From the IMG/VR virus record IMGVR_UViG_3300025316_001101: a stretch of DNA of 64,000 nucleotides; one strand, written 5' to 3'. The notes beneath the pieces were generated by a model, which did not search any database, had not been told where the DNA came from, and saw nothing but the letters and a program-made list of their open reading frames with translations. Origin of the DNA: a virus. Its lineage: Duplodnaviria; Caudoviricetes. Below are positions 7,464 to 57,994 of this stretch, one piece after another (position 1 is the stretch's first letter; every line of letters begins with the position of its first letter). Both the position numbers and the translations under genes were made by a program.

Positions 7464-7928
7464 TTATGTGTCTCTACTAACATTTCCCTTACATTGACAC
7501 CCGCTACCGCACTTTTGGACCACTTTATTAACTTCTTCAGTCTCCGCCGCTCGATCATGAAGGTGACGAATAGCCTTTTCCGACTCCTTACGACGTTCTC
7601 CGAAACGTCGCATTAACGTTTCGGATCTTTCCATATCGAACTTCTGATACACATCAATGTCGCCATTAACATCAATAGCATCAGTTTCATATGGTCCAGC
7701 CACACGGCGTTCGTATTCTGCTTTAACCGCCGTAAGCACACCGAGAGTCCTATTGATGGCATAATATCTCCAACCGCCTTCTGGTTTCATTACCCTATTA
7801 GTAATTGTGGTTAGCACATAATTTAGCACACCCTCAATTTCGTCTTCAGAAAAACTCTCTAAATCATTAACAATTTCTCTGATAGAATCTTTAAGTTGTT
7901 TGCGGTATTTTTTCTTTATATAAGGCAT
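7464..7928 (-). CDS. Conserved phage hypothetical protein
   Basis: The pattern 'MPYIKK...GVLNYVLT...YYAINRTLGVL...EYERRVAGPYE...NGDID' is familiar from phage nucleotide-metabolism regions. Confidence 0.6.
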   Translation of the reverse strand: MPYIKKKYRKQLKDSIREIVNDLESFSEDEIEGVLNYVLTTITNRVMKPEGGWRYYAINRTLGVLTAVKAEYERRVAGPYETDAIDVNGDIDVYQKFDMERSETLMRRFGERRKESEKAIRHLHDRAAETEEVNKVVQKCGSGCQCKGNVSRDT

Positions 7929-7936
7929 GATTTCTC

Positions 7937-8329
7937 CTATCGACTTATTACTTGGTACATTGGTTCAACATACACTGGTTTTGGCGTATCTTTAACGGTA
8001 AAGTCATTGTTGTTCAATGCCTTTTGTGCTTCTATCCACTCTTTTTGAGCCACATCCAATCGGTCATAACTCCCACAACTTTCTGTTCCATCCTGTATAT
8101 TCACATATACATGATACTTCCCATCCTTGTGAATGATTGCGTCTCCGCTAGCACATCCCAAAAATGATTTCCCTTCATTCACATATAAAGGCACAATCGG
8201 AGCTACTTTGCTTTTTAGCTCCTTGGTGGCAAAATTGACAAATGCCAATATGCCAGATTCTTGTTCTACAGTAAATCCATCGCCCTCTTCAGACAAAAAT
8301 TTGTACATCAATTTTTTAAGTTCGTTCAT
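7937..8329 (-). CDS. Hypothetical protein
   Basis: ORF track; tight packing within the operon. Confidence 0.55.
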   Translation of the reverse strand: MNELKKLMYKFLSEEGDGFTVEQESGILAFVNFATKELKSKVAPIVPLYVNEGKSFLGCASGDAIIHKDGKYHVYVNIQDGTESCGSYDRLDVAQKEWIEAQKALNNNDFTVKDTPKPVYVEPMYQVISR

Positions 8330-9118
8330 TTAATCACCTTTCGTTACCCTAATTGAATCACTATCCAAATGCTGAGTAGAAGTTTCTAAAAGTATAGAAT
8401 CTTCCTCAGCAAACATCTGATGTCGCATTCCTGGCGGAACATGGAATGTCGTCTCTGGCACCAAAATAATTGTTGCAGCTTGGGTAATATCATCCACATT
8501 ACCGTAAGTCAATCGCAACCTTCCCGACTGTAAGAAAAACGTCTCATCTTTTCTTACATGATAATGCCAAGAACATTGCTTGTGCTTATTGAATTTTAGT
8601 ATTTTACCACAGTATAAATGGTTGTTTGTCATCCATGTTTCTGATCCCCATCCTTTGGGAACATATGTCATTCCTCTCGACAGACTATCTTCATCTGTAA
8701 TTAGCACATCACTTTCTGGCAACTCGGTACTTGCATCCTCATTTACAACCGACGCAGGCAAATTATCTAATTCCTTCGGCAACAACCCGATCCGTATCAT
8801 CTCCTGTGTTTCCAAAAGGCAGGCAGAGTTCCACATAATTGCACTCAAATGATCTTCATCTTTCATTCCGGCCATAAATTTGAATGCATGTCGCATCATG
8901 GAATCTAAGTATCGACGCAATGGAATGCCTTTACGCCAATTGTCATCTCCATACTTTTGGCTGCCGTTTTCAAAATGCTGTGCTAAACGAGTAATAGCAT
9001 AGTATGGCAGCAAATCAAAGCGACCTTTCCCCTCCTGGGTATCTCGAACAGCACCGGTGCCAAATTCCTGTCGCTTACCAGAGTCTACAACTTTATTAAA
9101 TTGTTGCATAAGTCTCAC
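8330..9118 (-). CDS. dATP/dGTP diphosphohydrolase (DUF5664-type) fused to a cupin domain
   Basis: N-terminal 'GAVRD...GKGRFDLLP...GSQKYGDDNWRKGIP...DHLSAIMWN'; C-terminal 'PKGWGSE...CSWHYHVRKDETF...PPGMRHQM...ETST'. Confidence 0.8.
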   Translation of the reverse strand: MRLMQQFNKVVDSGKRQEFGTGAVRDTQEGKGRFDLLPYYAITRLAQHFENGSQKYGDDNWRKGIPLRRYLDSMMRHAFKFMAGMKDEDHLSAIMWNSACLLETQEMIRIGLLPKELDNLPASVVNEDASTELPESDVLITDEDSLSRGMTYVPKGWGSETWMTNNHLYCGKILKFNKHKQCSWHYHVRKDETFFLQSGRLRLTYGNVDDITQAATIILVPETTFHVPPGMRHQMFAEEDSILLETSTQHLDSDSIRVTKGD

Positions 9119-9191
9119 CTACATAAAAATGTATATTCGGAATGGATAATCGTTAATTGTATGCTATGATAGAAGAAAGGTCAAGACTAAC

Positions 9192-23176: not shown

Positions 23177-23425
23177 TTTTTATATAAAAAAAGAGGTATC
23201 TATAAAAACAATTTATAGCACCTCTTTGCAGGTATTCGGGATTTTATCCCTATCGGATTTCCGCTCAAGTTGTGACACTAAGTATCATTCAACTTCCATG
23301 CAAGCGTCTTTCCTATTGCAAGGGGCTAATGGCTCATCCGCATGGGCAGTACCATTTTAGCCTAATCTTACAATTTGAAGATTGAACCTTACCTGCTACT
23401 GTATTTACTCCTTTAATTTCAAAAA

Positions 23426-38460: not shown

Positions 38461-38818
38461 AGAATGGTTAGCATTGGATTACTTGGTCGAAGCTTTCGGA
38501 CAAGAAGAAATAGACTCCCACAAGGTCTTAGATGGGAAGTGGGAGCCCCCACTCAACCAAATTGCTAATGAGCATAATTTCTATTTTAACTCTGAACCCG
38601 ACCCTCAAAAAGAATGTAATGGTCGTCAATGCTATAAATTACATGTTAGTTGCAATTATCATGGCGGAGAAGGAGATGTGGCAAACATTAGTTTCAGACA
38701 TGCTTACTCTGGTTATGGTGATAGATTTAAGTACGGTGCCTCTACGGAAGAAAAGGTTTTGCAAGAAAAGATTGGTAAGGATGTAGTCAATTACCCCTAC
38801 CCTAAAGAGGTTCAATAG
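38450..38818 (+). CDS. CTS-like protein (MNFKEWL), paralog of 41134-41442; C-terminus altered by IS insertion
   Basis: The last ~10 codons lie inside the IS right end. Confidence 0.55.
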   Translation: MNFKEWLALDYLVEAFGQEEIDSHKVLDGKWEPPLNQIANEHNFYFNSEPDPQKECNGRQCYKLHVSCNYHGGEGDVANISFRHAYSGYGDRFKYGASTEEKVLQEKIGKDVVNYPYPKEVQ

Positions 38819-40362
38819 TGGTTTTCATTCGCTTACGCTCACTCGCTCCACTATTGAACTTTCCTTCGGAAAGTAGGGGCTTGGATTGATTAAAAATGTT
38901 TTCAACCAACCTCTTACAAGAGAAAGAATGGATTTTATCCAACCTAATTCTTGAAGGCGTATTGACAACGCCTCTACTGAGTTGAGTCCGAAGACCCTTC
39001 CCGCTACCTGATTTCAGCATAATTCCCAATGCACCGTGCATATCAGCATTGATAATAATACCTGTACTTGACTTGAACAAACCACGCTTTATTCTTCGTC
39101 CTAAATACTCTTCGTGATGACACATTGGTTCATTTGCTAAATGGTCGCACTTTGAAGTATATGCTTCGTTGATGGATTTATATTCAATTCCATATAACTC
39201 ACACTTACTTCGCAATTTCCAAGCAAACTTACCAAACGGAAGCATTACAAAGTTTTGGTTGTTTTTGTCTCCAATGTGACTTCCATCTTGAGCGTGCCAA
39301 CCTTCACCAATTACCACTTTGCCAATTTGATGTTTAATACAAGTTTGAACAATCAAATTGACATATTGATTGAGATGTTCGTTCAATCTACGATTTCTTT
39401 TATCCTCCATTGTTCGCATACGCTTACTTGATTTTTGTCCTTGTGTTTCCAGTATTGATTGTAGTCTTGCTCTCTCCTTATTATACCATTGATTTATGGA
39501 TTTCATTCTACGCCCGTCTAAGATAAACGAGTGTCCAGTTTTACTGTCAAGGCAAGTGGCGAAATTACTTACGCCAGGATCAATACTCAATACACGACTT
39601 TTTTCAAGTTTTGGATGTTCTTGTTCAACTTCATACACAAACTCAATCTCAAAATGCTCTGCTTTACTCTTTGGAAGAATGCGAACCTCTTTTATCCGAT
39701 TGCCTTTGACATTCGGAGGGATTTGATACACAAACTTCTTGAACTTATACTTACTTCGTAAATCTTTTGGCACTGCTACACTAAAATGTTCAACACAATT
39801 TCGCTGTGGAAATATACAGAGGAAATGTCCATCTTTGGGAAGAAAATGAGGTTTTTTGACTGGCTTGTTGTAATTGCCATGTTGTTTCTTTTTCAAAAGT
39901 CCAAAGAAAGAACGAAAACAGCGTTCTACTATTTTCATTGTTTGTTGAGAGGCATCAGTTCCAAGTGCCTTATATTCAGGTCTTACTTTCATTACATGGT
40001 ACGCACTGTTGTAGGTCAAAAATTCTCCGCATTGACCAAAGTGATTGTTAGTTTCCCACAATGTAGAATTGAAAAGATTTTTGCTACGGCGACACATATC
40101 ACGCCAAAACCTAAATTGGCTTCTATCCAACTTCATCTTATTCTTTTGGACTTTGAACATCTCATACTTATATAGTATGATTGCTCATAATTTTTTTATG
40201 AATTCTAAATTATTTTGAAATTATTTTTATTATGGCGGCTTACATCCCACTACCCTAAAGAGGTTCGCTCTGTTCGTTCGGTCGTTCGCCTACGGCTAAC
40301 TTACTCACTCACAGAACAAACATTCCTTTGGAATGTAGGGGTTTCACGCCGCCCCCAGATGA
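38786..40362 (-). mobile_element. TnpB-only (IS1341-like) IS200/IS605-family element
   Basis: tnpB flanked by related subterminal hairpins at 38786-38882 (right end, finishing TAATTGAC) and 40234-40362 (left end). Confidence 0.8.
38802..40160 (-). CDS. tnpB: TnpB RNA-guided nuclease
   Basis: Motifs 'LSIDPG', 'VVIGEGW...Q', 'EAYTSKC' and 'INAD..GA..I'. Confidence 0.9.
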   Translation of the reverse strand: MFKVQKNKMKLDRSQFRFWRDMCRRSKNLFNSTLWETNNHFGQCGEFLTYNSAYHVMKVRPEYKALGTDASQQTMKIVERCFRSFFGLLKKKQHGNYNKPVKKPHFLPKDGHFLCIFPQRNCVEHFSVAVPKDLRSKYKFKKFVYQIPPNVKGNRIKEVRILPKSKAEHFEIEFVYEVEQEHPKLEKSRVLSIDPGVSNFATCLDSKTGHSFILDGRRMKSINQWYNKERARLQSILETQGQKSSKRMRTMEDKRNRRLNEHLNQYVNLIVQTCIKHQIGKVVIGEGWHAQDGSHIGDKNNQNFVMLPFGKFAWKLRSKCELYGIEYKSINEAYTSKCDHLANEPMCHHEEYLGRRIKRGLFKSSTGIIINADMHGALGIMLKSGSGKGLRTQLSRGVVNTPSRIRLDKIHSFSCKRLVENIFNQSKPLLSEGKFNSGASERKRMKTTIEPL

Positions 40363-52458: not shown

Positions 52459-53187
52459 ATGTGGGATAAAATCCAATGTGTAATTCAAACTTATAATCAG
52501 CCTGCCACCAAAGAACTACAACAATGGATCGCTTGGACCAAAGTTGATTGGCGATACAGTGAAGGCGGATATGAAATTGATGTGGCCAAGAATCGTTCGG
52601 TTATGAAGTTCCTTGCCGAAGACGTTCCCAGAGGAAAGGAATATTTATTAATGATTGCCAATGATATGGTTCCGATGCCAACGACTTTCAATATTTTGAC
52701 AGAACCAGGAGATTTGATTTATTGTCAATCAATGGGAAATGAAGGTCGATTAGACCATCATGGCGACAAGAATTTTTCTGCCGCCTGTTGGAGAGGACAT
52801 GCTAAGGTTTTACAATCATTTGGCCCACCGTGGTTCCGTATGGGCCATACTGGGGATCGCACTTCTCAAACATATTGTGATTGTGGATATTTCAAAGATC
52901 GAGCACAAGAACAAGGATACGATGGTCGGCAAGTGGGAATTATTGGACATGAACAGAGATGTATTCTTACCCCTCATGGAGAAGATATACAAAAATGGAG
53001 CATGATTTGGCCTAGTGGTTGGCCATTAGGGGATGTATTTGCATCCACACAACCAAAAACAACCGCTGCTCAGTCCCTTGCGACTCCTGTAACCCCTTGC
53101 CCATGTCCGTGTCCGAAACCGGCTGTTACAGCAGCAACTCCAGTTGTCGCTCAACCACAAGCGATTTCTGCGATGCCTGCATGCTAA
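52459..53187 (+). CDS. GT-A-like glycosyltransferase with Pro/Thr/Ala-rich tail
   Basis: 'DVAKNR.V..FL...YLLMIANDMVP' resembles phage GT2-like proteins, with a degenerate DxD. Confidence 0.5.
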   Translation: MWDKIQCVIQTYNQPATKELQQWIAWTKVDWRYSEGGYEIDVAKNRSVMKFLAEDVPRGKEYLLMIANDMVPMPTTFNILTEPGDLIYCQSMGNEGRLDHHGDKNFSAACWRGHAKVLQSFGPPWFRMGHTGDRTSQTYCDCGYFKDRAQEQGYDGRQVGIIGHEQRCILTPHGEDIQKWSMIWPSGWPLGDVFASTQPKTTAAQSLATPVTPCPCPCPKPAVTAATPVVAQPQAISAMPAC

Positions 53188-53195
53188 TTTAATTG

Positions 53196-53234
53196 AAAAA
53201 CCCAATGTCGGCCTACGCCGACATTGGGTTTTTT
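53196..53234. terminator. Bidirectional terminator of the CAATGTCGGC family, also downstream of the tRNA
   Basis: aaaaacccaatgtcggc-ctac-gccgacattgggttttt. Confidence 0.85.
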
Positions 53235-53236
53235 AG

Positions 53237-53344
53237 TAGCCGAAGCGGGACTTGCACCCGCACGGAGGTTACCCTCCACAAGATTTTAATTCATAGCGAT
53301 GACTGTCGCTTGTCTTGTGTGTCTGCTAATTTCACCATTCGGCC
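53237..53344 (-). tRNA. tRNA-Leu(UAA), type II, with a 22-nt insertion between positions 32 and 33
   Basis: Acceptor GGCCGAA/TTCGGCT, D-stem GTG/CAC, anticodon stem CAAGA/TCTTG with loop C|T-TAA-AA, variable arm GGAGG-GTAA-CCTCC, T-stem GCGGG/CCCGC; no encoded CCA. Confidence 0.85.
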
Positions 53345-53345
53345 A

Positions 53346-54254
53346 TCAACTATTTAGCAACTTCCCCATTCTATCTATAGCGTTTTGTCTTCGCAAATGA
53401 GTTTTGGCATATTCTTGACCAGCTTTACCTATCATTTCTGCCTTTTCGGGATTCTCCACAGTCCAATTAACTGCTTGCAACATCCCTTCCGCCGTTTCGG
53501 CGGAAGGGATGTAGTGTACCCAAGGCTGAAAACTGCCATCGAACCAGAACCATTGTTCATATTTACGATCTGTAGCAATTATTGGCCTTCCTGTAGCTAG
53601 CAACAGCGGAAGCCGTCCACTATGCCCATTTGCCGTCAAATCAATTAGAATTCTATATTTACAATGCTCTACGAGGGTAATATAATCGCTGGTGTGCTGG
53701 TAAAGGTTGGTTTTATCCCGTCGATTCCATTCCATCATGCGAATATCCATAAGATCTGGATATTGAGCCGCCAAATCATTGGCTACCACTCTAGTTGGGT
53801 GGGTATTGGCACCGATCCAAAATGCCCGTGAATTGACTGGCAACACCTCTCCTGCCCGCACCAATTCTTGAAAGGTTGTTTCATAGTCCAAAATTCCTAC
53901 TTCGGGCCATGCATCAAACACAAAGTTGGGCATGCATTTATCTAATAGGTCTTTTGAAGTAATGGAAAACGAAAAGTCGGCAGCATGATTAAAAATGTCA
54001 CCAGTATCAATGTGAATCATTTTTTCTGGTCTAGACTGGTCACTTTTTACACATTGATCCCAAGCTGCCTTGAGCAAACGTATTAAAGATGGGTGTCTAG
54101 TTTCATGACATCCATAGTCATTAAATTCTATTTTGGCATGATCATAGATCATGTCTAATTTTTCTTTACCGTAGTGTATACGGTTAGTCGTCTCTCGGGT
54201 CGGCAACGTCAATTTTGTAATCAGCTTCTTCATCAAATTTCTCGAACATTTCAT
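53346..54254 (-). CDS. Glycosyltransferase family 90 (CAP10-domain) protein
   Basis: 'HCKYRILID...GHSGRL..LL..G..I...WF...FQPWVHYIP...V.W...NPEKAE.IG..G.EYA'. Confidence 0.8.
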   Translation of the reverse strand: MKCSRNLMKKLITKLTLPTRETTNRIHYGKEKLDMIYDHAKIEFNDYGCHETRHPSLIRLLKAAWDQCVKSDQSRPEKMIHIDTGDIFNHAADFSFSITSKDLLDKCMPNFVFDAWPEVGILDYETTFQELVRAGEVLPVNSRAFWIGANTHPTRVVANDLAAQYPDLMDIRMMEWNRRDKTNLYQHTSDYITLVEHCKYRILIDLTANGHSGRLPLLLATGRPIIATDRKYEQWFWFDGSFQPWVHYIPSAETAEGMLQAVNWTVENPEKAEMIGKAGQEYAKTHLRRQNAIDRMGKLLNS

Positions 54255-55599
54255 CTACGGATGTATATCGGTTGGGTTCCACTTCTTTTTCATAGGATGT
54301 CTCTTTTTCAATGTCTTCCTTGGCTTCTTCCCAAGGAATCGTTTTCTCAACACCAGATTTTACATCTTCAACTCGTTGTTTCAAATCTTCGCACATTTCC
54401 TGTGCTTGTTCTGGTCCACCATAGAAAGATACTTCCCAATAAACAGTATCAAGAATTTCCAATAAAGTGAAATGCTGTTTGCCGATTGAAATTTTATTCT
54501 CAAAATGTTCGTACACGTCTAAAGTATCATCAGCTACAATTGAAAGATCAGCCAATTCACACATCGGGGTGAAACCAATGCCGTAGTGTTGGGTTTCTGG
54601 CGAAGGCACGGGATTACCATCTTTATCCTTGACGCCATACTTTACCCACTCTGCCTTTTCTTCTTCGCTCAATGGCCCGTAACCATGAATATCGCAACCC
54701 ATACCGATGTCACGATCTTCTTTGTATACATGTACTTCACCACGTCTTGTCAATTTCAAAAAATACAAAGTGGTAGGAGTTGCAGGCAACTTAGCAGCAG
54801 CATGGAATTCATCAATGGAACGGCACCAAGAGTATTGAGCAATCAGGCATTTGAGTGCTTCATTTGAATCTACAAAATTGAACAAATCTCGCAGACTGAA
54901 ATTTTCCGCAATCGAACAAGGGCTCATCAAATATTGTAGGGGATCAAGTTTCTCTCCTATTGCATTGAAAACCCCATCTTTTTTCAAATAAATTTCTTCG
55001 ACATCATCAGGATGACGACCGAATAGACTTTCCAACATTTCAAGAAGCGTGAAACAATAAGTACCTTGCAAGACTACTTTGCCATCATCGTATATCTTGA
55101 ATTCCTCATCCAGTTTTAGAGGTACATCCCAATCAGCGTGAGGGATGGTAAAACTATTGTTGGATACAATGGTCAACATTCCATCCAAGCCGACTAATCC
55201 TTCACGACTAATGATGAGTGGGCCATTGGTTGTAGATTCAGGCTCTTCCTTTTGACGTTGATAGTCAAACAGCGGCAGCATCGCCAGGGCCAACAGTTCG
55301 AGTTCTTCAGTATTTTTAATAAAATCCATCAAATCTCTTAGGGTAAAACCCTCTTCGATTTGAATTCGATCTCGCAAAGAAGTGAAGACGTTATTGACCG
55401 GGCCGATGTCATAGAAAAAATCATCGGCATCTTCCGGTGTGTTGGCTGTAAAAACGATTTCACCGCTTTCACGGTTTACAATGACACATTTGCCATCTTT
55501 TTTACGACGTTTGTGTTCACCGCAACGATCACCATTCCATTCGCACTTAATCAAACCCTGTTTCGTTAGTGTCAAGCCAGCATCCATATCGTTCTCCAA
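54184..55599 (-). CDS. Hypothetical acidic protein with internal duplication
   Basis: ORF track; repeated 'F(T/S)LRDL..F' and 'FTLLE.L' segments. Confidence 0.55.
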   Translation of the reverse strand: MENDMDAGLTLTKQGLIKCEWNGDRCGEHKRRKKDGKCVIVNRESGEIVFTANTPEDADDFFYDIGPVNNVFTSLRDRIQIEEGFTLRDLMDFIKNTEELELLALAMLPLFDYQRQKEEPESTTNGPLIISREGLVGLDGMLTIVSNNSFTIPHADWDVPLKLDEEFKIYDDGKVVLQGTYCFTLLEMLESLFGRHPDDVEEIYLKKDGVFNAIGEKLDPLQYLMSPCSIAENFSLRDLFNFVDSNEALKCLIAQYSWCRSIDEFHAAAKLPATPTTLYFLKLTRRGEVHVYKEDRDIGMGCDIHGYGPLSEEEKAEWVKYGVKDKDGNPVPSPETQHYGIGFTPMCELADLSIVADDTLDVYEHFENKISIGKQHFTLLEILDTVYWEVSFYGGPEQAQEMCEDLKQRVEDVKSGVEKTIPWEEAKEDIEKETSYEKEVEPNRYTSVDEMFEKFDEEADYKIDVADPRDD

Positions 55600-55615
55600 T
55601 GCAAATGTACAAAAA

Positions 55616-55820
55616 AAATTGCCCCGTACCCACGCTTCTGTTCTATGTAGTCATTTCTCTATTGGCCGCTACCCGTCCTCGTCGAGCCGTTCATCCTCTC
55701 AGACTGTTTGCGTTACAACCTCGGAAGTGCAAGCGACTTACGTCTCCTTCCTTAAACGGTGTTGGCGTGAGGTTCCTCACATCCCAGTTACCTGGGGTAG
55801 TGCGACTACTCGGGCAATTT
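55616..55820 (-). ncRNA. rnpB: Minimal RNase P RNA (catalytic domain with reduced S-domain)
   Basis: CR-I GAGGAACCUCACGC, CR-IV AGAGAAAU and CR-V ACAGAAGCGUGGGUA. P2 GUAGUC/GACUAC; P4 ACC-U-CACGC/GCGUG-GGU with bulged U; P5 CAAC/GUUG; P6 CCGUU/AACGG; P15 CGC/GCG with L15 GGGUA; P16 and P17 present. Confidence 0.88.
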
Positions 55821-55824
55821 CCTT

Positions 55825-55853
55825 ATTATAGCGTAGATTGCTTGGTTTGTAAA
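55825..55853 (-). promoter_or_regulatory. Sigma70-type promoter for the RNase P RNA
   Basis: TTTACA (55853-55848), a 17-nt spacer, then TATAAT (55830-55825); predicted start near 55818-55820. Confidence 0.8.
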
Positions 55854-55972
55854 CCATAGCTTGGAAGTAACGACTTGATCGTTTGCGCAACTGCTGATCT
55901 ATCCACAACATAGAGGCTGGGAATAATATTGAGAGCCATGCATACCAATGTTCTTGTCTTCCCACCAGTGAA

Positions 55973-57187
55973 TTACCCCGCCGCTAAAGACGGCGGGGCT
56001 TCCAGTCCAGACAGCAGCCCACTCAAAGCAGGTCTTACGCCATGACAACTGGCTATCTCCGTAATTCCTACGGTTCTATTTTCTAAATTTATTCCTTGTC
56101 TCAATATGTTGGTCGCAGCGTTCCTATCTCGGTCAAGTTTTGTCTCACAACGAGGACAAATCCATTCTCGGTCAGCAAGTGTTAGTTCATCGTTGATGTA
56201 GCCGCAATGATTACAAGTTTTACTGGATGGAAACCATCGGCTCACTTGTATCAACTGACGACCATACCACTTTGCTTTGTAGGTTATCTGCCGAACCAAC
56301 TCATACAAAGAACAATCCCAAATACTTTTAGACAACCTACGATTTTTCATCATACCAGAAATGCACAAATCCTCCAACACGATAGTTTGGTTTTCACTAA
56401 CGATTTGATGGCTGACCTTGTGTAGATGGTCTTGACGAATGTTGTGGATGTAATTGTCTAACTTTGCGAGGCGTAATCGTGCTTTCTGTCTCCCTTTGCT
56501 ATCTTTTTCAGTTCTGGATAGTGCTTTGGCTAATACTCGCCTACGCTTCTCCAAACTGCGATAAGGACGAATATTTGGATAGGTTTTCCCATCCGAACAA
56601 GTCGCAAGTGCTTTCACGCCTAAATCAATCCCAACCGCCTTTTCCACAACAGGCAGTTTAGGAATATGTCGCTGAACACCAATACAGGCAAAATACTGAC
56701 CCGCTTTATTTTTGCTGATAGTAGCGTTTCGGATTTCGCCTTCAATGGGTCGGTGTAATGTAATTTCAATACCCTCTCGGAACTTCACAATATGGAGTTT
56801 GTTGATACGAACCTCAACATGTTGAGGAACACGGAAGGATTGCTTGTGATTTCTTTTCTTAAATCTCGGAAATTTAGCCAAGTTCTTATAGAACCTGTTG
56901 AAACCAGAGTCCAGATGTTTGAGGGCGTGCTGTAATGATTGACTATTCACTTCATTCAACCAGTCCAATTCATCCTTGACTTTTGTTAGTTCTTTGGCAT
57001 CATCGTTGTAGTTCAAAGACTTCTTTTCCAAGTCCTTTTCTTTGGCTTCAAGATAGAACTTTACACGGCGGTCAAGGAAACGATTATACACAAAGCGGAC
57101 GCAGCCGAAGTGCTTGGAGAGTTTAATTTCCTGCTCTTTTGTTGGGTAAATCCTGAACTTGTATGTATAATCCGTGTGTTGTTCCAT
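55973..57187 (-). CDS. tnpB: TnpB RNA-guided nuclease with intact-looking RuvC
   Basis: HTH 'YKFRIYPT'; RuvC motifs 'GIDLG', 'IVLEDL' and 'DRDRNAA'; zinc finger CNHC/CPRC. Confidence 0.95.
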   Translation of the reverse strand: MEQHTDYTYKFRIYPTKEQEIKLSKHFGCVRFVYNRFLDRRVKFYLEAKEKDLEKKSLNYNDDAKELTKVKDELDWLNEVNSQSLQHALKHLDSGFNRFYKNLAKFPRFKKRNHKQSFRVPQHVEVRINKLHIVKFREGIEITLHRPIEGEIRNATISKNKAGQYFACIGVQRHIPKLPVVEKAVGIDLGVKALATCSDGKTYPNIRPYRSLEKRRRVLAKALSRTEKDSKGRQKARLRLAKLDNYIHNIRQDHLHKVSHQIVSENQTIVLEDLCISGMMKNRRLSKSIWDCSLYELVRQITYKAKWYGRQLIQVSRWFPSSKTCNHCGYINDELTLADREWICPRCETKLDRDRNAATNILRQGINLENRTVGITEIASCHGVRPALSGLLSGLEAPPSLAAG

Positions 57188-57243
57188 TGCTTCCTATACT
57201 GATTTCTGATATAGTATAGTATGCAACTCGGAGAAAATTTTTC

Positions 57244-57669
57244 ATGGCAAAAAAGAAAAAATTTAAGAAATACAAAAGTTCGTCTCACGCCAAGTTTCTT
57301 CTGAAAGCCCATGTCATTTTCGTGACCAAATATCGGAAGAAAATTCTGGTGAATGCTATCAACGATGCGATGAAGCAGATACTTTTTGATATTGCTAATG
57401 AGTCGGACTTCACGATTGAAACAATGGAGAGTGAGAATGGCGACCATATTCACATGCTCATTGATTATCCGCCACAAATCTCTATTAGCAGTATTGTCAA
57501 TCGGCTGAAAAGTATGTCCACCAATCGTATCTGGCAAGGTGGTTGGGCTACATTCTTGAAGCAAAGGTTTTGGGCAGAACATACTTTTTGGTCGGATGGT
57601 TATTTTGCTGCCTCCACTGGTGATGTAAGCACAGAGGCAATTCAGCGATATATTGAAGAACAAGGATAG
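57244..57669 (+). CDS. tnpA: IS200/IS605 Y1 HUH transposase
   Basis: Motifs 'HVIFVTKYRKK', 'DHIHML', 'FWSDGYF' and 'IQRYIEEQ'. Confidence 0.95.
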   Translation: MAKKKKFKKYKSSSHAKFLLKAHVIFVTKYRKKILVNAINDAMKQILFDIANESDFTIETMESENGDHIHMLIDYPPQISISSIVNRLKSMSTNRIWQGGWATFLKQRFWAEHTFWSDGYFAASTGDVSTEAIQRYIEEQG

Positions 57670-57994
57670 CCAGTTTTAATGGCTCTTATGCTGTTTTAGA
57701 TGGGAAGAGATTGACCACAATTTAATCAGTTTCAATTTGTGGTAGTTTTGACTAATTTCCATTATGACGCCTTACATCCTCTACCCTAAAGAGGTTTGCC
57801 CTGTTCATTCGGTCGCTCGCTAACGCTCGCTTCCTCACTCACAGAGCAAACTTTCCTTTGGAAAGTAGAGGTTTTACGGCGTCCCAGATAAAGTCATTTC
57901 CCGCAAGCATCTTTTGGGCAAGATCTTTCATATCTCTTGTCTGACCTTCATTTGTGGTTTCATTGGATATTTTATAAATAAACACCAATGAAAA

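Follow-up and report, generated by a model that had tools for sequence, protein, structure and literature searches.

The 64,000-nt stretch of viral DNA analysed here (record IMGVR_UViG_3300025316_001101 of IMG/VR; Duplodnaviria, Caudoviricetes), which we call the window, carries a minus-strand locus arranged in the order promoter, ribozyme, U run, a 467-aa open reading frame (ORF), a second ORF resembling glycosyltransferase family 90 (GT90), a tRNA-Leu(UAA) gene and a terminator (Table 1). The initial annotation had placed a ribonuclease P (RNase P) RNA and an unusual tRNA on the same strand; both proved to be real, and they are separated by 2.27 kb. By comparison with its relatives (homologous loci in other records are designated by L numbers), the ribozyme is an RNase P RNA without the specificity domain (S-domain), and it belongs to a family conserved in large and huge phages. 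From its sequence, the hairpin at the far end of the locus is likely a bidirectional intrinsic terminator which closes the operon; it also follows a plus-strand ORF ending at 53187.

Table 1. Coordinates of the features at the locus and of the transposon-related genes in the window.
Feature	Position	Strand	Basis or remark
Sigma-70-type promoter, TTTACA-17-TATAAT	55825..55853	-	11/12 consensus matches
Mini RNase P RNA, 205 nt, catalytic domain only	55616..55820	-	Full-length match to RF02357
U-run extension past the P1 3' strand	55611..55615	-	8 U in all, 55618-55611; read from sequence
467-aa ORF (P0001, fam0)	54184..55587	-	GGAG 7 nt ahead of ATG
302-aa ORF, glycosyltransferase family 90-like	53346..54254	-	PF05686, E=2.7e-27
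tRNA-Leu(UAA), long variable arm	53237..53344	-	ARAGORN with introns allowed: tRNA-Leu(taa) i(34,22)
22-nt hairpin insert, stem AGCGA/UCGCU, between tRNA positions 32 and 33	53290..53311	-	
GC-rich hairpin flanked by A and U runs	53195..53233	.	Read from sequence
IS605-family tnpB	55973..57187	-	Upstream of the ribozyme
Second tnpB	38802..40160	-	In the window

At the gathering thresholds of Rfam, no match was found in the window. A permissive Rfam scan spanning 51-58 kb of the window returned one significant match, to the RNaseP-T model RF02357, which aligned over its whole length (1-208 of 208) with 37.1 bits, against a gathering score of 60, and E=2.5e-5. Rfam chose this model because the 5' strand of helix P4 in the window RNA, GGAACCUC, resembles the consensus of type T from Thermoproteaceae. 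Our own covariance model (R1) scored the window RNA at 255 bits. Direct reading of the sequence revealed P1 (AAAUUGCCC paired with GGGCAAUUU), P2 (GUAGUC with GACUAC) and the P3 hairpin. By eye and against the relatives we also recognised the P4 pseudoknot, which has 8 bp and a bulged U (ACC-U-CACGC with GCGUGGGU). The 3' strand of P4 is preceded by ACAGAA, P5 is present, and P15 is capped by a CGGGUA loop. Folding by minimum free energy was unremarkable (z = -2.0), and the case for the window RNA therefore rests on comparative evidence.

The S-domain of bacterial RNase P RNA comprises roughly 150-200 nt and reads the elbow formed by the D and T loops of tRNA. At its site, the window RNA holds a GNRA-capped stub hairpin of ~40 nt, and the segment enclosed by P5 measures 41 nt, in agreement with the earlier proposal that the ribozyme lacks this domain. 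The first base of P1 lies ~5 nt from the end of the promoter's -10 box, and equivalent promoters precede the ribozyme in L118 and in L122 (in the latter, TTAACA-17-TACAAT). The U run which follows P1 has a counterpart of six U at the matching place in L118; judged from the sequence, it may act as a partial terminator or as a processing site ahead of the ORF.

A first covariance model was built from three sequences, and the RNA-first search combined a pattern taken from the conserved 3' block with a covariance-model screen. Positives were obtained at 19 of 100 viral loci as compared to 2 of 100 loci from prokaryotic genomes, and one of these two was a 546-kb contig in a metagenome-assembled genome (MAG; L292). 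With model R1, 25 further homologues were assigned to the family, which brings it to 26 distinct phage RNAs with lengths of 165-292 nt. The published phage genomes LR756502 (642 kb) and LR756501/3 (735 kb) also encode a mini RNase P RNA; a search of GenBank phages with the RNA only reached solely LR756502.1, at 69% identity. With blastn, the 2.9-kb region had no match among GenBank phages, the exact 14-mer GAGGAACCTCACGC gave chance matches only in viral contigs, and back-translation scans of viral contigs with single proteins (the 467-aa protein; a DnaB-like helicase) yielded nothing. In our literature searches, no paper on an RNase P RNA of phages came up, and the terms RNase P and ribozyme are absent from the text of the huge-phage paper behind LR756501-3.

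The relatives tie the family to bacterial RNase P. The 210-nt RNA located just upstream of the protein gene in L122/L123 matched RF00010 positions 1-367 (68.9 bits, E=2.6e-19), with an alignment that skips the S-domain, about 140 model positions. Four viral records contained RF00010 matches at 47-72 bits, and every family member scored under the gathering score of this model (100 bits). Across the 26 sequences, 91.4% of the cells of the model structure were paired, as compared to 64% after shuffling and 34-45% when the partners were slid, and both sides varied in 40 of the 52 pairs. Two poorly supported helices were RNAalifold mispairings of P5 and P4 strands; P4 and P5 were counted separately from the RNAalifold structure. 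In this count P4 was 94.7% paired, with at least three pair types at most positions, its bulged U was found in 24 of 26 sequences, and P5 was 87.5% paired. Helices P1, P2, P3, P5 and P15 follow one another in the canonical RNase P order, and the best conserved blocks, CR-I and J18/2-P2-J2/4, flank the catalytic core. The segment enclosed by P5 ranges from 9 to 111 nt (40-44 nt in about half of the family), and therefore none of the 26 RNAs has an S-domain.

Among the closest known counterparts is bacterial class A RNase P RNA (RF00010; M1 RNA of E. coli, rnpB), which has the same catalytic architecture. It shares with the phage RNAs the GAGGAA(A/G)(G/U)UC and ACAGAA blocks, P4 with its bulged U, the CGGGU loop of P15 and the J18/2 sequence AGAUAAAUG, and the relatives align to it end to end. 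The phage RNAs differ in the absence of P7-P14 and P18, in their length and in being encoded by phages. Type T of Thermoproteaceae (RF02357; PMC3579882) is likewise a natural RNA without the S-domain, is of about the same length, and has GGAACCUC as its P4 5' strand. However, type T comes from archaea, where archaeal protein subunits are its partners, and taken together the phage RNAs resemble bacterial class A more. On these comparisons, the resemblance to type T is a convergent reduction and not membership. Engineered bacterial RNAs that consist of the catalytic domain (C-domain) only have the same parts list and cleave pre-tRNA, but are artificial and less efficient (PMC5839562; reviewed in PMC11143913). 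By contrast, the phage RNAs occur naturally and are conserved; they have the GNRA-capped stub hairpin and variable P15-P17 extensions, features which may have a compensating effect.

The genomic surroundings of the family members point to tRNAs. In L234, the ribozyme is located between tRNA-Cys and tRNA-Leu(UAA) in an array of 28 tRNAs, and in L198 between tRNA-Asn and tRNA-Ile; it directly precedes tRNA-Arg in L167 and tRNA-Gln in L220, in all four cases on the same strand as the tRNAs. Further tRNAs lie within 5-320 nt of the ribozyme in L232, L180 and L204. A tRNA-Leu gene is found near the module of ribozyme and protein in L122, L128, L133 and L136, and in L122 it is a canonical tRNA-Leu(UAA) situated 1.1 kb downstream of the gene for the homologue of the 467-aa protein. 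The genomic link between ribozyme and tRNA that had been suggested from the window alone thus extends to its relatives, as tRNA-Leu(UAA) in the clade of the window and as tRNA arrays in other phages. In more distant relatives, the RNA stands between a RecD-like helicase and an uncharacterised gene (fam2), after which come a threonyl-tRNA synthetase, the protein, and a class II aminoacyl-tRNA synthetase of the Asp/Asn/Lys type. Clusters of this kind were noted at L125:4408-5631 and 7784-9175, and at L127:4389-5612.

Five viral records encode 10-59 tRNAs each, and four of the five contain a single RF00010 match each, below the threshold. A full-length RNase P RNA was not found in any of them, including a 532-kb record rated 100% complete. 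The rnpA gene, which was not visible in the window, was also not found (PF00825) in the records of five relatives, one of them rated 100% complete. Since no rnpA was found in the phage records, the protein partner of the ribozyme is probably the RnpA of the host.

At the other end of the operon, the UGA of the GT90-like ORF lies 1 nt from position +1 of the tRNA in the window (53345-53348). In L118, where the GT90-like ORF is missing, the stop codon of fam0 abuts tRNA +1 directly, with 0 nt between them (L118:3400-3403). With a distance of 1 nt, the tRNA-Leu of the window must be cut out of an mRNA, as had been noticed earlier, and at 0-1 nt RNase P cleavage would define the 3' end of the mRNA. 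A tRNA directly after a coding region is also typical of tRNA punctuation, known from mitochondrial mRNAs and the tRNA cluster of phage T4; the window differs from these systems in having a ribozyme gene at the 5' end of the same transcript.

We weighed several explanations of the locus, and we lean slightly towards an RNase P ribozyme of the phage which has retained only the catalytic domain, is placed at the head of one transcript and trims the phage's own pre-tRNAs. This explanation rests on homology, fold conservation, the absence of the S-domain, operon anatomy and tRNA linkage, from which we infer catalysis, partner and substrates. The promoter of the operon would drive a transcript that contains the ribozyme, the 467-aa protein, the GT90-like ORF and the intron-bearing tRNA-Leu(UAA) and ends at the terminator. 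The ribozyme would pair with host RnpA, or else act alone or with a phage factor, and would cut the 5' leaders of phage pre-tRNAs. It would recognise its substrates by the acceptor stem, by positions -1/+1 and by the 3' end instead of the D/T-loop elbow, and would also release the tRNA-Leu with which its own mRNA ends. Bacterial C-domains without the S-domain cleave pre-tRNA both with and without protein, with weaker substrate binding (PMC11143913; PMC5839562). In the phage, a high local substrate concentration or co-transcription may offset such weak binding.

Several observations weigh against this explanation. The P4 5' strand of the window RNA is GGAACCUC where the bacterial consensus is GGAAAGUC, with a change in the 3' strand that compensates for it. 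The window copy is located outside any tRNA array, in the position of a 5' untranslated region of a protein gene. Moreover, 6 nt are deleted from the ribozyme of the closest relative (L118:1760-1956), with the loss of most of the 5' strand of P4. The deletion was seen in the three assemblies that reach the site (L118-L120), and elsewhere the RNA and its promoter are conserved; this means that catalysis is possibly dispensable or decaying in that sub-lineage. The start of contig L120 coincides exactly with the deletion, possibly a sign of a heterogeneous population there. The deletion in the sister lineage is our main caution, as it leaves an RnpA decoy, a scaffold and decay as rival explanations.

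The first of these rivals is that the RNA binds host RnpA, either as a decoy that starves the host RNase P or in a relaxed hybrid enzyme that cuts host mRNAs or phage polycistrons. A non-catalytic role would fit the L118 copy, which is well conserved apart from its broken P4, and both the missing rnpA genes and the high conservation of CR-I and J18/2-P2-J2/4 agree with RnpA binding. However, P4 and its bulged U are retained with strong covariation in nearly all family members, which indicates selection on the catalytic core, and a position inside tRNA arrays is better explained by tRNA processing. In addition, according to PMC3001073, a poxvirus RNase P-like RNA tried as a decoy reduced host RNase P activity by only 20%. 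We consider the decoy or retargeting of RnpA to be quite unlikely. That poxvirus RNA, from camelpox (an orthopoxvirus), is also virus-encoded, but its similarity to RNase P RNA is a loose one of secondary structure and, according to the same source, it does not cleave pre-tRNA; unlike it, the phage family has conserved core sequence blocks and a covarying P4.

Decay is the second rival. The copy in the operon could be a displaced, non-functional relic of an RNase P gene of the array type, in line with the P4 deletion of the sister lineage and with the location of the window copy outside tRNA arrays and beside an IS605-family insertion. Yet all 8 pairs and the bulge of P4 are kept in the window through compensated changes, the differences from the relatives in P1, P2 and P3 are compensatory as well, and a near-consensus promoter is retained in three lineages. 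A relic is thus highly improbable.

The tRNA-Leu of the window was next compared with its relatives. With default settings, ARAGORN reported no tRNA in the window. Once the insert had been removed, the program drew a normal 87-nt class II cloverleaf, with G-U at 1:72 and without an encoded CCA. The elbow is non-canonical: the D loop has AG instead of GG (G18 to A), and the T loop has UGCAAGU instead of UUCAAGU (U55 to G). The gene is orthologous to the tRNA-Leu(UAA) genes of L122, L128 and L118, and a change in acceptor-stem pair 7:66 is compensated, which implies that the window tRNA is under selection. The L118 tRNA (L118:3403-3512) has a 22-nt insert at the same position, with a conserved stem and a changed loop, and the insert is absent from the tRNA-Leu of L122 and L128. 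No splicing mechanism for the insert was evident.

The initial annotation had coupled the elbow-blind enzyme to the elbow-variant tRNA. According to this explanation, the S-domain was lost as the ribozyme came to serve tRNAs with an altered elbow, and the two form a co-adapted, self-contained module of enzyme and substrate. Indeed, both partners of the G18-U55 contact are changed in the window tRNA. We scored an elbow as canonical when it had GG and TTCRA. By this measure, L122 and L128, which have the same protein and the same ribozyme with an intact P4, combine them with a canonical-elbow tRNA-Leu(UAA) lacking the insert. L118, with its broken P4, has the insert and also a canonical elbow, and only the window joins an intact P4 and the insert to A18/G55. 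The co-occurrence expected of mini RNase P and variant elbows was not supported either, as 82 of the 87 distinct tRNAs at ribozyme loci were canonical. The double change A18/G55 was seen three times among the 87 tRNAs at ribozyme loci and never among 72 tRNAs at control viral loci, too few cases for the difference to be significant.

Apart from the Leu tRNA of the window, A18/G55 was found in tRNA-Gly(UCC) and tRNA-Gln(CUG) of L234 (1521-1594 and 2389-2461, respectively) and in tRNA-Ile(GAU) of L198 (2179-2252). The four variant tRNAs share a UGCRA T loop, and two of them, the window Leu and the Ile of L198, come first among the tRNAs downstream of the ribozyme. This suggests, with numbers too small to carry weight, that A18/G55 could be a tolerated and recurrent alternative elbow pair rather than a sign of decay, and the positions of the two first-downstream tRNAs also speak for co-adaptation. 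However, with the S-domain missing in 26 of 26 members, its loss long predates the elbow change. The loss of the S-domain is family-wide and old, and the elbow change is private to the lineage of the window; the A18/G55 elbow and the 22-nt insert are separate lineage-specific features and not the reason for the absence of the S-domain. Co-adaptation of the ribozyme to the variant elbow therefore appears improbable.

Alternatively, a virus RNase P that no longer has to read the elbow and has a specificity of its own may mature tRNA-like transcripts that host RNase P handles poorly. The ribozyme could then use the 467-aa protein as a new cofactor, or act in cis on the next tRNA downstream, and candidate substrates would be tRNAs that are embedded in an mRNA, intron-bearing, permuted or equipped with the A18/G55 elbow. 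We regard this explanation as unlikely.

The gene that directly follows the ribozyme encodes a 467-aa protein for which no family was found in Pfam, NCBIfam, PHROG or PADLOC, and an ESM Atlas search with it was uninformative. It was matched by 1702 clusters at 50% identity (E<=1e-3), and the family occurs in a two-domain form of ~400-475 aa and as the C-terminal domain only (~220-260 aa). Motifs conserved in the family (P0001, P0002-P0153) are YSWC..IDEFH and LLE.LDA.YWEISF.GGP. AlphaFold modelled the protein with a predicted local distance difference test score (pLDDT) of 91.3 for the whole chain and 95.8 for the C-terminal domain. No convincing fold match was found in the PDB for either of them (Foldseek E>=0.18); with VIA, the whole protein reached at best Z 4.0 (over 51 residues) and the C-terminal domain Z 2.0, and in AlphaFold DB only unnamed proteins were matched. 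The uncharacterised gene fam2, which follows the RNA in distant relatives, was considered as a split N-terminal half of the 467-aa protein, and BLASTP gave no support for it.

Another explanation of the locus is that the RNA is the partner of the 467-aa protein in a ribonucleoprotein, or regulates its translation from the 5' untranslated region, and does not carry out standard 5' trimming of tRNAs. At 13 of 20 distinct protein-first loci, drawn from IMG/VR and JGI metagenomes, a full-length RNA precedes the protein gene by 0.03-2.9 kb on the same strand, and the protein was downstream of the RNA at 7 of 15 RNA-first loci, including L292. Homologues of the protein had 64%, 57%, 44%, 36% and 33% identity, with L122/L123 at 36%, and the adjacency persists down to this 36% while other neighbours change. 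On the other side, many ribozyme copies are located in tRNA arrays with no such protein nearby, and the RNA occurs without the protein in one record (77% complete) and the protein with no detectable RNA in another (96% complete); in part, the synteny is perhaps just inherited. The linkage between RNA and protein is real but not obligate, and a protein partner or regulator in place of a tRNA-trimming enzyme seems to us rather improbable. In L292 (CALFYV010000090.1, 546,147 bp, labelled as a MAG of an uncultured Bacteriovoracaceae), the RNA is located directly upstream of a full-length homologue of the protein; this contig is probably the genome of a huge phage that ended up in a bacterial MAG during binning, or it may give a clue to the host.

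Besides the locus, the window encodes a DnaB-like helicase, a DNA polymerase, a UvsX-like recombinase and further helicases, and P0001, which is encoded beside the ribozyme, comes from a contig listed with a length of 373,808 bp. From this gene content, the window looks like a part of a large phage. In comparison with the uninterrupted junction of L118, an insertion of roughly 2.1 kb (about 55860-57950) separates the upstream terminator from the promoter of the ribozyme. We noticed GTTTA at both junctions of this insertion, which contains the first tnpB gene; the two TnpB proteins of the window are only distantly related to each other.

We also considered whether the ribozyme could be read as an omega RNA of the neighbouring tnpB, and rejected this reading. 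L118 has the promoter and the RNA without the ~2.1-kb insertion, the ribozyme begins 150 nt beyond the tnpB stop codon, neither overlapping nor abutting it, and a 24-nt match at the stop codon is all that the second TnpB gene of the window shares. A non-coding RNA region at 23186-23407 was tried as a separately encoded S-domain and showed no RNase P match. A weak match to RF01373, a model of a CRISPR direct repeat, was seen within this region, at 23240-23276 on the plus strand (26.7 bits, E=0.014).

RNase P RNA is counted among the housekeeping ribozymes of the cell. A minimal RNase P has arisen naturally in type T of Thermoproteaceae and in the protein-only enzymes; if the phage RNA is indeed a natural, conserved RNase P which, with its catalytic domain only, processes the pre-tRNAs of the phage, it would add a third such route and would give an evolution-tested answer to the question of how much RNA is the minimum for 5' processing of tRNAs. 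Huge phages would then bring tRNA maturation in addition to tRNAs and aminoacyl-tRNA synthetases, and if the ribozyme has a specificity of its own, phage tRNAs would be free to drift from the processing rules of the host. As one transcript holds the ribozyme, the 467-aa protein and the substrate tRNA, direct tests are possible, with the sister lineage and its broken P4 as a natural control, and the recurrent A18/G55 elbow offers a handle on which enzymes constrain the tRNA elbow.

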